From: a phage
Length of the DNA: 64,000 nt
Sequence record: PZ543597.1
Reading direction: 5' to 3' (one strand)
In this document: piece by piece, positions 26,195-28,463 of the stretch
Position numbering within the stretch: position 1 is the first letter of the stretch
Layout of the letters: every line of letters begins with the position of its first letter
Program-made: the position numbers and the translations under genes
Notes under the pieces: model-generated
What the model was told of the DNA's origin: nothing
What the model saw: the letters and a program-made list of their open reading frames with translations, nothing else
The model's database searches: none

Positions 26195-26210
26195 AGGGGC
26201 TTCGGCCCCT
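26195..26210 (+). terminator. GC hairpin with UUCG loop (terminator or RNA stabiliser)
   Basis: aggggcttcggcccct directly after the stop codon; the downstream U-tract is weak. Confidence 0.45.
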
Positions 26211-26230: not shown

Positions 26231-26836
26231 ATGAAAATGCAAAGTGATTTCAATTCAATGTTTGAAGAGTTCCAAAGACAGGTTGATGTTCCAGATCAAT
26301 TATTAAATGCTCTTAAACGTATGGCAGAAGGACGTAATTACTATTGGGGGTCTTCATACGAAACTGATGAAAGTCTTTCTGGATTTTATAAAGGTAAAAA
26401 GTCTTTAATACGTCCTGGAATACTCATTAAAAGTATTGAATCAATTCATTCATTGACGTGTGATTTTGATGTTGAATTTACTGATTTCATTTCTCCTGAA
26501 TGGACAGTTTGTTATTTAAATGACGATTATGATTATCTTGGCGTTTATAGTTTAAGTGACGCATGGTTTAAACGTAATTTACAAAAGTCAAATTTGTTCT
26601 ATATTGATACTACGGTAAAATTTCAGGGAAAGAAATATTTCTTTACTCTTATAGTTGATTCTGAAACGAAGCATGAGAATAAACGTATTCTTAGTAAAAA
26701 GAATATCTTAACTATTGTTGATGATCTTTTTGATAAATTCGTAGAAAATCCCAATTTTGAAAGCGATTTATTACTAGAAAAATTTGTTAAGGAATGTAGA
26801 GAATATGTCAAAACCATCACTATACCTTCCAAGTAA
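26231..26836 (+). CDS. hypothetical protein, first member of a translationally coupled chain
   Basis: 201-aa ORF with RBS ggagtaaatagga; C-terminus FVKECREY overlaps the next gene's start. Confidence 0.55.
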   Translation: MKMQSDFNSMFEEFQRQVDVPDQLLNALKRMAEGRNYYWGSSYETDESLSGFYKGKKSLIRPGILIKSIESIHSLTCDFDVEFTDFISPEWTVCYLNDDYDYLGVYSLSDAWFKRNLQKSNLFYIDTTVKFQGKKYFFTLIVDSETKHENKRILSKKNILTIVDDLFDKFVENPNFESDLLLEKFVKECREYVKTITIPSK

Positions 26837-27197
26837 ACCGTTGAAGTATGAATTAAAGCGCCAGCTAATTCCTACTGATGTATTAATAGGTCCTGTTATA
26901 CTCATATCATTTGTAATTCTATTGATTATTGGAGGTGTTTTAGATGTTATGACTGATATTGATTCTGGCGAAATACTTGTGTTAATGCTAATTCTTCCAT
27001 TAATAGTTCCACTTTTATTAGTACCTGTAAATTGGGTAGGATACTGGTATCAAGGAAGACATTATCGTAAACGTGTACGCGAATGGAAAGCTCAGTGTAA
27101 AAAGATTAAAAAGGAACACCAGTTTAAACTTGCCGCGTATGAATTTGATGAAATTATGAAATTTGTTAAGGAATCACGATGCAAAAGCCAAAACTAA
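26805..27197 (+). CDS. small membrane protein (coupled chain member)
   Basis: 130 aa from ATG 26805 (MSKPSLYLPSK); hydrophobic core, basic tail, C-terminal FVKESRCK. Confidence 0.5.
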   Translation: MSKPSLYLPSKPLKYELKRQLIPTDVLIGPVILISFVILLIIGGVLDVMTDIDSGEILVLMLILPLIVPLLLVPVNWVGYWYQGRHYRKRVREWKAQCKKIKKEHQFKLAAYEFDEIMKFVKESRCKSQN

Positions 27198-27541
27198 ATA
27201 AAGTCAAATATTCGTTTTCTGAGTCATTTTTAATTTTTGCTGTGGCGTTGGCTGCAGCTCTTGCGGGTAGTCTTTTTGGATTGTTAATTGACTGTCTTAT
27301 TTTAAACATTGACGGCACAGTAAATATAATAGAAGTTTGGAGTGAACTTCACTATACCAAAATTATTTCATTGTTTTCATTTTTTGGTATTATATTATAT
27401 TTTCATTATGATAATTTTAAAATAAATTGGCAAAGAAAAAAGGATTACAAAATACAATTAAAGGAATATAATAACTACATGTCTTATATTGAAAATGAAT
27501 CAATGAAAGAGTTTGTGAGTGATTGCAGGAAAATCAAATGA
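27179..27541 (+). CDS. small membrane protein (coupled chain member)
   Basis: 120-aa ORF with two hydrophobic segments and C-terminal FVSDCRKIK; the start overlaps the previous gene's 3' end. Confidence 0.5.
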   Translation: MQKPKLNKVKYSFSESFLIFAVALAAALAGSLFGLLIDCLILNIDGTVNIIEVWSELHYTKIISLFSFFGIILYFHYDNFKINWQRKKDYKIQLKEYNNYMSYIENESMKEFVSDCRKIK

Positions 27542-28026
27542 TTTTAAAAACTCGCTGGTATGATTTAGATGATGGGGACGATAGCATTTCAGTTGATAGA
27601 GTTGACTGGAATGGCTGTTCCGAAGATATGAAAAATTTGCTGATTAGGGAGTTTAGAATGGGATATCAACCAGTTAAGCCATCTACTGCAACAGATGATA
27701 AATTCGTGTGTATTCATAATGGTCGCGCTAAATTAACGAACGCTGATTGGTTCACAGATAAAATTATGATTCTGTGGTACATTATTAGTTTTCCTGTGAC
27801 ATCATTTGTATTTTGCTTCTTTGGAGAAAGTCCAGTAGGCAGAACGGGAGATTGGATTCTTTTAATCATACTTGTTAATATTTTTACAGCAGCAGTACTA
27901 TCAGGAATATGGTGCGTGTTCATTGAAATGCCATGGCGTTTACGTAGGCAGCAAAAGATTTTTGATGAAAAGAAATATACTCAAAATTTAAATAACTTTA
28001 TCACTGAATGCAGGAAATTAAAATGA
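27538..28026 (+). CDS. small membrane protein (coupled chain member)
   Basis: 162 aa from ATG 27538 (MILKTRWYDL); hydrophobic segments; C-terminal FITECRKLK. Confidence 0.5.
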   Translation: MILKTRWYDLDDGDDSISVDRVDWNGCSEDMKNLLIREFRMGYQPVKPSTATDDKFVCIHNGRAKLTNADWFTDKIMILWYIISFPVTSFVFCFFGESPVGRTGDWILLIILVNIFTAAVLSGIWCVFIEMPWRLRRQQKIFDEKKYTQNLNNFITECRKLK

Positions 28027-28463
28027 AAACATTATCAGCTGGTATTATCTTTATGACAGAAGATAAAGATTTATTCATGGGACGGGTTACTGGTTCTCGT
28101 AAGCCTGGAATGATGGCACATCGCTGGGATATTCCAAAGGGCCGTGTAGAAAATTCTGATTTAAACGCACTAGATGCAGCACGAAGAGAATGTTTAGAAG
28201 AGACTGGTTTTAGCAATTATAATCCAGACCTTCTAGAAGACCTAGGTGTATTTAAATATTCTAGTAATAAAGACTTACAGTTATTTTATTATACGATTCC
28301 AGTAGAGCATGAGATGTTTAGAAATTGCCATTGCGAGTCTTATTTTGAAAATAAAGATGGTGTTATGATTCCAGAGATGGATGCTTTTGCTCTTATTCCT
28401 CGTACTCAGTGGCAATATGTGATGGGTCCTTCACTTTACCGAATAATGAACAGCCTCTTTTAA
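28023..28463 (+). CDS. nudE: Nudix hydrolase
   Basis: Nudix box GRVENSDLNALDAARRECLEETGF; ATGA overlap with the upstream gene; sits immediately upstream of e as T4 nudE (e.1) does. Confidence 0.8.
   Translation: MKTLSAGIIFMTEDKDLFMGRVTGSRKPGMMAHRWDIPKGRVENSDLNALDAARRECLEETGFSNYNPDLLEDLGVFKYSSNKDLQLFYYTIPVEHEMFRNCHCESYFENKDGVMIPEMDAFALIPRTQWQYVMGPSLYRIMNSLF

Follow-up and report, generated by a model that had tools for sequence, protein, structure and literature searches.

The stretch of DNA analysed here (the window) comprises 64,000 nucleotides (nt) of a phage and is deposited as sequence record PZ543597.1. Within it, an earlier note had described the positions 26231-28026 as a chain of small, mostly membrane-bound proteins whose overlapping genes are joined by a repeated junction sequence. 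The region was found to be the e.5-e.4-e.3-e.2 block of a T4-like Tequatrovirus phage, followed downstream by nudE (Table 1). Its DNA is 91-97% identical to that of more than 440 Tequatrovirus genomes, where T4T reaches 92% and other Tequatroviruses as much as 97%. The four proteins encoded by e.5 to e.2 were covered end to end by PHROG profiles (E = 1e-59 to 1e-108), and tblastn returned between 535 and 644 phage records per gene. The comparison with the T4 e genes proposed in the earlier note identified the block as T4 e.5-e.2: the genes, their order and their overlaps are the same and nothing essential differs. Between e.6 and nudE-e, the gene order on the same strand is identical in T4T, RB32, T2 and HY01. 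The block is annotated in T4T as e.5, e.4, e.3, e.2, then nudE (e.1) and e (lysozyme), and in the older T4 record GenBank L13089 its genes are named msp4 to msp8, with msp4-msp7 for e.5, e.4, e.3 and e.2. Close relatives bear the precomputed Pfam families PF26876 (e.5), PF26873 and PF26896. The genes themselves are already known as uncharacterised T4 open reading frames (ORFs).

The gene starts 26805, 27179, 27538 and 28023 had been called correctly, and the overlaps into the gene that begins there are 32, 19, 4 and 4 nt, respectively. That the chain leads into a Nudix gene was also borne out.

Table 1. Genes, junctions and other elements of the e.5-nudE region with their positions in the window, and C-terminal tails of homologues in other genera (aa, amino acid residues; TM, transmembrane; SD, Shine-Dalgarno sequence)
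Feature	Position	Strand	Description
e.5 orthologue	26231-26836	+	201 aa, soluble; no hydrophobic segment; PHROG 2607, E=9.6e-108
e.4 orthologue	26805-27197	+	130 aa, predicted two-TM hairpin, basic C-tail with FVKESR; PHROG 2604, E=1.1e-70
e.3 orthologue	27179-27541	+	120 aa, predicted two-TM hairpin, C-terminus FVSDCRKIK-stop; PHROG 2330, E=4.4e-59
e.2 orthologue	27538-28026	+	162 aa: 75-aa N-terminal domain, predicted two-TM hairpin, C-tail FITECRKLK-stop; PHROG 2203, E=1.1e-78
nudE (e.1), Nudix hydrolase	28023-28463	+	Pfam NUDIX, E=1.7e-13; closes the overlapping chain
Junction e.5/e.4	26780-26807	+	AAATTTGTTAAGGAAT (codons K-F-V-K-E, with SD UAAGGA), then 9 nt gtagagaat (C-R-E-Y in part), then e.4 ATG at 26805
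Junction e.4/e.3	27159-27181	+	AAATTTGTTAAGGAAT again, then e.3 ATG at 27179
Junction e.3/e.2	27512-27541	+	TTTGTGAGTGATTGCAGGAAAATCAAATGA; SD AGGA inside the C-R-K codons; stop and start overlap as ATGA
Junction e.2/nudE	27997-28026	+	TTTATCACTGAATGCAGGAAATTAAAATGA
GC-rich hairpin	26195-26210	+	AGGGGCTTCGGCCCCT, UUCG loop; between e.6 and e.5, directly 3' of e.6
e.4 TM1 repeat	26906-26918	+	ATCATTTGTAATT; pairs with ATCATTTGTATTT at 27801-27813 in e.2 TM1; part of the e.4::e.2 chimera crossover region
Mosigvirus PhAPEC2 e.5 tail			FIMECREY...
Mosigvirus PhAPEC2 e.4 tail			FVKEIRCK...
Mosigvirus PhAPEC2 e.3 tail			FIKECRK-stop
Mosigvirus PhAPEC2 e.2 tail			FITECRNLR-stop
Mosigvirus PhAPEC2 RB69ORF133c-like tail	L003:5009-5314		NFIKECRGK-stop; 101-aa two-TM protein
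Dhakavirus e.2 tail			FIEECRK-stop or FIKECRK-stop
Kanagawavirus PEi26 e.2 tail			FIKGCRK-stop

The C-terminal motif and its conservation

All four proteins of the block carry the motif F-[VI]-x-[ED]-[CS]-R near the C-terminus. They end with ...KFVKECREYVKTITIPSK in e.5, ...KFVKESRCKSQN in e.4, ...EFVSDCRKIK in e.3 and ...NFITECRKLK in e.2, each directly before the stop codon. When all six reading frames of the 64 kb were searched for the pattern F[VIL]x[ED][CS]R, six matches were obtained, and four of these were the tails of the block. Within the last 20 residues the motif occurred in 4 of the 106 plus-strand ORFs, compared with a mean of 0.0085 in 2000 shuffles, which confirmed that four consecutive genes encode related C-terminal peptides. 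The corresponding DNA pattern TTTRTNANKGAWTSHMGR had exactly four perfect matches, all of them in the e.5, e.4, e.3 and e.2 tails. With one mismatch allowed, five matches were found against 0.70 expected, and none of 100 shuffles reached five. The peptide had been taken as the very end of all four proteins, which is not so in e.5 and e.4. The e.5 motif FVKECR covers residues 185-190 and is followed by 11 more residues that overlap the e.4 start, and in e.4 there are 5 residues beyond the motif Arg. Both proteins extend past the motif since, within the overlaps of 32 and 19 nt, their last residues are encoded by the DNA for the N-terminus of the next gene, but in another frame.

The tails of homologues in other genera are listed in Table 1. 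The e.2 orthologues of Dhakavirus, Kanagawavirus and Mosigvirus have retained F-I-x-x-C-R at the C-terminus, and among six e.2-tail sequences from four genera with 18-44% identity the only invariant columns were F, I, C and R of the motif. Within the e.3 family and within the e.2 family, the residues F, C, R and K are invariant. The codons of the motif vary synonymously, with AGG, AGA, CGT or CGA for Arg, TGC or TGT for Cys and TTT or TTC for Phe. Since the Arg and Cys codons are exchanged in this way, selection appears to act on the protein. The motif is retained whatever gene follows, be it e.2, nudE, ORF139c, ORF118, ORF130c or PEi26 ORF131. The overlap of stop and start with the next gene is likewise retained in all tail homologues of Table 1 except RB69ORF133c, where the next start lies 2 nt past the stop.

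When 2.9 million viral contigs were scanned for the motif, 32 pattern matches at 11 loci were found, all in T4-like genomes of about 170 kb save for one 14-kb contig fragment. The earlier note had held that the idea would fall if the tail similarity disappeared in a statistical alignment or if homologues in other phages lacked the overlap. The similarity survived, and neither the motif nor the overlap is missing in the homologues of Mosigvirus, Dhakavirus and Kanagawavirus. The main constraint is on the protein, and the recurring "junction" would mainly be a conserved protein motif that is maintained by selection on the proteins.

Junction DNA and translation signals

At the DNA level, the junctions resemble each other in pairs. 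The junctions e.5/e.4 and e.4/e.3 share the 16-nt exact direct repeat AAATTTGTTAAGGAAT (second copy at 27159-27174; p ~0.001), and their likeness extends into the downstream starts (M-S-K-P-S-L and M-Q-K-P-K-L). The junctions e.3/e.2 and e.2/nudE are identical at 24 of 30 positions (80%, p ~0.00025). Their likeness appears to reach about 30 nt into the downstream genes, which are read in different frames; this added little score and was counted as unproven. Further inside, 27554-27572 of e.2 and 28038-28056 of nudE are alike at 15 of 19 positions (GCTGGTAT.AT.T..ATGA), in differing frames and with a one-base offset from the junction repeat. This may be a trace of an event that duplicated the junction, or chance. 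The four cross comparisons of non-adjacent junctions gave no significant DNA similarity (p = 0.09-0.46). The recurring junction of about 20 nt therefore stands for adjacent pairs but not across them, and a fixed linker at the DNA level had to be given up, since non-adjacent junctions are unlike and the peptide is kept while the DNA differs between genera. The consensus gaatg(c/t)ag(g/a)aaa that had been given for all four is exact in e.2 and has one mismatch each in e.5 and e.3, but does not fit e.4 (gaatcacgatgc).

The SD of each downstream gene was located within the motif codons. For the e.4 and e.3 starts it is UAAGGA (-6.1 kcal/mol against the 16S tail), supplied by the V-K-E codons (GUU AAG GAA) of e.5 and e.4. 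For the e.2 and nudE starts it is AGGA (-4.3 kcal/mol), supplied by the C-R-K codons (UGC AGG AAA) of e.3 and e.2. Here the V-K-E position is altered, to S-D in e.3 and T-E in e.2, and two extra residues (IK or LK) give the SD spacing. In Dhakavirus the SD is GAGGA and is encoded by E-E codons. The energies of -4.3 to -6.1 kcal/mol belong to the top 6-14% among all ATGs. Overlap as such is commonplace in the window, in which it was counted for 34 of 105 pairs of neighbouring plus-strand ORFs, with ATGA in 15 cases. For nudE, some public records use an alternative start at 28008 (151 aa), which has no SD (+1.7 kcal/mol). The start at 28023 is more likely because the AGGA SD (-4.3 kcal/mol) and the ATGA overlap are found there and not at 28008.

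The junctions were also considered as RNA elements, which was rejected: folding found no structure more stable than in shuffles (z = -0.14 to +1.17). A promoter scan between the hairpin at 26195-26210 and nudE gave hits no higher than in shuffles, and no promoter hexamer pair was seen at the junctions. In the L13089 annotation, a stem-loop follows e.6 and the only promoters are those ahead of msp1-msp3 (e.8-e.6); there is none inside msp4-msp8, and no terminator is annotated inside the block either. The hairpin lacks a T-run on the plus strand and has a terminator-like match on the minus strand; it may be an RNA-stabilising or attenuating element before e.5-nudE. The genes e.5 to nudE are likely to form a single transcript with coupled translation.

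Cistrons with ATGA-type overlaps of stop and start, translationally coupled, are well known from phage and bacterial operons. The present genes resemble them in being on the same strand without intergenic space, in overlapping by 4-32 nt and in having the SD inside the upstream ORF. They differ in that the codons which contain the SD also encode a conserved motif of the family, and the coupling is here predicted from the arrangement of the signals.

Membrane topology, paralogy and natural rearrangements

Three of the products had been said to contain hydrophobic segments, and two hydrophobic helices each were indeed predicted in e.4, e.3 and e.2 and none in e.5. In e.4 the TM helices extend over residues 27-47 and 57-76 approximately; the loop that joins them is acidic, and the tail carries a net charge of +9. 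The proteins e.4, e.3, e.2 and ORF133c have the same architecture, with a pair of TM helices, an acidic loop and a basic C-tail that ends in the motif. This does not apply to e.5, which has only the 11-15-residue tail in common with them. The architecture fits an N-in/C-in arrangement, in which e.4, e.3 and e.2 would be two-helix inner-membrane hairpins with basic cytoplasmic tails. In the AlphaFold2 model of e.2, the tail was predicted as a single helix continuous with TM2.

The relationship of the proteins was followed by profile comparisons. A profile-profile alignment (hhalign) of e.4 and e.3 spanned the full length (108 columns, E=1.4e-5, probability 80%); e.3 also matched the e.4 PHROG weakly (E=0.0056), and both N-termini read M-x-K-P-x-L. 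Against a profile of the e.2 tail, the e.3 tail scored E=3.7e-6, e.4 scored E=3.9e-4 (37 columns, which begin where TM2 ends and reach as far as the motif), and the e.5 tail scored E=1.4e-4 over 11 columns only. The Mosigvirus protein ORF133c matched the e.2 PHROG with E=2.8e-4; the ORF133c-like gene lies several genes away from e.3. By these alignments, e.4 and e.3 are full-length tandem duplicates, and e.2 and ORF133c are members of the same family of tail-bearing hairpins. The tail of e.5 may have come from fusion, conversion or convergence.

An exhaustive search of 1.8 billion representatives with a crude three-sequence profile of e.4, e.3 and e.2 gave 9 clusters, all of them Tequatrovirus or Mosigvirus genes or rearranged variants. 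As far as such searches indicate, the tail-bearing family is narrow and restricted to T4-like enterobacterial phages. A local Pfam-A scan gave no match for the four e.5-e.2 proteins, NCBIfam gave only sub-threshold noise and word-index homologue searches returned close relatives only. A literature search on e.2-e.5 found nothing relevant, and in the public annotations examined (hypothetical or predicted membrane protein) neither the shared tail nor the paralogy of e.5-e.2 was found to be described. Some e.3 and e.4 homologues are labelled "sulfurtransferase", "major capsid protein", "DNA primase" or "putative phosphoserine phosphatase" in public records; no support for such names was found here.

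Several natural rearrangements of the block were observed in related phages. T2 and RB32 are without e.2 and have the hybrid junction gattgYaggaaa joined to ttaaaatgaaaaca, in which the left part is of the e.3 type and the right part of the e.2/nudE type. The partners of this deletion correspond to the junctions 27512-27541 (left) and 27997-28026 (right). The crossover lies inside the common TGYAGGAAA, and the e.3 frame and the ATGA overlap with nudE are preserved. Dozens of Tequatrovirus genomes have the same hybrid junction without e.2. Exact-pattern scans of viral contigs, with few Tequatroviruses among them, gave one hybrid junction, no alternative hybrids and three intact junctions. Four genera have e.2 adjoining the nudE region, and the T2-like phages are therefore best taken to have lost it by deletion.

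The other rearrangements were of a different kind. In phage UFV11 (L008:1501-1821; protein P0109), residues 1-31 of e.4 are fused in frame to e.2 from inside TM1, and e.3 is gone. The fusion site is a short homology (CCTGT...ATCATTTGTA), and the chimera is a 106-aa two-TM protein that has retained the tail and the nudE overlap. A metagenomic e.4 (P0113) has lost both TM helices by an in-frame deletion. In the Mosigvirus PTE-Eco05 (L011:1700-1990), e.4 is frameshifted and e.3 is internally deleted. The e.3 gene of RB32 (L001:2700-2720) is truncated by a frameshift at a longer A-run, and in the T4 records examined (T4T, L002:2811-3298) e.2 is split into e.2a and e.2b, whereas it is intact here. 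Because decayed copies occur in T4, RB32 and a Mosigvirus, the genes of the block are evidently dispensable. In another metagenomic protein of 97 aa (P0115), the first 35 e.4 residues are joined to unrelated ...SRTIRSDIKALQEYL...; this could be an assembly chimera or a further fusion.

Among about 640 records no altered gene order and no duplicated or relocated module was found; the changes were confined to losses, decay and a single chimera. The deletion of a repeat-flanked gene with formation of a hybrid junction was seen in one case, e.2; there was no insertion or relocation, and the other rearrangements occurred at other sites. The module duplication or shuffling suggested in the earlier note is thus supported in part: the genes are related, as the e.4/e.3 alignment and the tail profiles indicate, and one pair of junctions has recombined (e.2 loss in T2 and RB32), but no reordered or moved module was seen.

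A second array of small paralogues is found in the Mosigvirus PhAPEC2 (L003:2857-3651), directly after the e.3 junction. The RB69ORF139c-, 137c- and 136c-like proteins encoded there end with GAWVSSSALC, GGWVASSHTC and QGWVSSSYSC, respectively, and TAAGGAA with the next start comes after each of the first two genes. Like the e genes, these are small paralogues that lie side by side and have a conserved C-terminus (GWVSSSxxC). They differ in being soluble, in having another motif and in being separated by short intergenic gaps instead of overlaps. In view of this second array, tandem paralogue arrays seem to be a normal product of these hyperplastic regions.

Explanations for the recurring junction

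We consider it probable that the block is a tandem paralogue array in which a conserved cytoplasmic tail motif also provides the region where translation of the next gene begins, and in which deletions from junction to junction arise occasionally as a by-product. The tandem paralogues e.4 and e.3 would form one small family together with e.2 and the RB69ORF133c-like lineage of Mosigvirus. The basic cytoplasmic tail of these hairpins would end with (N/E)-F-(I/V)-x-(E/D)-C-R-K, and the soluble e.5 bears the same peptide near its C-terminus. The genes appear to be packed with stop/start overlaps into a single transcription unit, and because of this tight packing the motif codons would also hold the SD and the spacer of the next cistron. 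With the SD inside the upstream motif codons and with the overlaps, translational coupling of each gene to the one before it is probable. The similar junctions and other short homologies between the paralogues may serve unequal recombination, which would lead to in-frame deletion or fusion of genes. The tail itself might act as a shared cytoplasmic contact or assembly motif.

Some points weigh against this explanation. Translational coupling and co-transcription were deduced from the sequence alone. The profiles are shallow (effective number of sequences, Neff, ~1.5-3), the links of e.2 and e.5 extend over 11-37 columns, and for e.5 convergence of a short tail retains some probability. The AlphaFold2 models were poor, with a predicted local distance difference test (pLDDT) score of 42 for e.5 and 49 for e.2, too low for a fold search. 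Finally, the SD falls on the K-E and E-E codons of the motif, and part of the conservation may act on the nucleotides.

As an alternative, the array could be shuffled by a dedicated recombination linker. In T4-type phages, gene modules are shuffled by way of PeSL (promoter-early stem-loop) cassettes (Arbiol et al. 2010, PMC2839356; Comeau et al. 2014, PMC4122927). The junction could be the coding counterpart of such a cassette, at which modules are cut out, perhaps in the form of small circles, and inserted again in frame at other copies. In RB49 and phi1, genes flanked by PeSLs have been lost, forming mini-circles (PMC2839356). In the present block e.2 is flanked by the 30-nt repeats and is precisely missing, with a hybrid junction, in T2, RB32 and many Tequatroviruses; e.4 is flanked by the 16-nt exact repeat; and in Mosigvirus unrelated genes start exactly at the ATGA junction of e.3. 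On the other hand, the non-adjacent junctions are not significantly alike in DNA, and the peptide is kept between genera while the junction DNA differs. Shuffling is also not apparent, as no module is reordered, duplicated or relocated in the roughly 640 records, and three other natural rearrangements break within genes and not at junctions. Because four genera have e.2 next to the nudE region, a simple loss is the best reading of its absence. The junction repeats are one of several recombination substrates among the paralogues and thus not a privileged linker, and we regard this explanation as unlikely. PeSLs themselves are intergenic, about 100 bp long and contain a sigma-70 promoter and a stem-loop terminator (PMC2839356; PMC4122927). 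The junctions share with them that boundary repeats in a hyperplastic region recombine, so that the flanked gene is lost and a chimeric junction is left, as for e.2 in T2 and RB32. They differ in being coding, 16-30 nt long and equipped with an SD, and in that conservation acts on the protein; with neither promoter nor stem-loop, an assignment as PeSL was rejected. By analogy, PeSL shuffling is the nearest mechanistic parallel for the loss of e.2.

The needs of translation might by themselves produce such ends, since an SD, an A-rich spacer and the ATGA force purine-rich gene ends; the tails would then be convergent and have no role in the protein. The SD of every downstream gene does lie inside the motif codons, the K-stop ending follows directly from AAATGA and overlaps are very common in the genome. 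But the motif is found in these four only, although 34 of the 106 plus-strand ORFs overlap their neighbour. The F, I/V and C positions are outside the SD and invariant across genera, the Arg codon varies freely (AGG, AGA, CGT, CGA), and the SD shifts among the motif codons while the peptide is retained. In e.5 the motif lies 11 codons ahead of the stop, and the homology of e.4 and e.3 spans their whole length. Translation signals as the sole cause are therefore very unlikely. A chance match of short AT-rich sequences has next to no probability: the motif is short and was defined post hoc, but four tails stand against 0.0085 expected, the profile E-values range from 4e-6 to 4e-4, and the independent retention of the motif in orthologues of four other genera refutes chance.

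The tandem paralogue array is not a new kind of system; the arrangement is real and fairly ordinary for such phages. It unites four long-standing T4 ORFs in one putative family, whose signature would be a two-TM hairpin with a conserved cytoplasmic tail and which offers a handle for mutagenesis and interaction tests. A more speculative and rather unlikely extension is that the F-(I/V)-x-E-C-R-K tail is a docking or assembly peptide, by which e.5 and the hairpins e.4, e.3 and e.2 (and ORF133c in Mosigvirus) bind each other or a common partner. If this were true, coupling would set the stoichiometry and the block would encode one modular inner-membrane complex, with subunits that could be lost or fused in frame because each ends in the same peptide and start signal. 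The block would also be a clean case of dual coding, with one stretch of codons for a conserved peptide motif and for the ribosome-binding site of the next gene, and one in which the similarity of paralogues may lead to precise in-frame gene loss and fusion in an accessory region of the phage.

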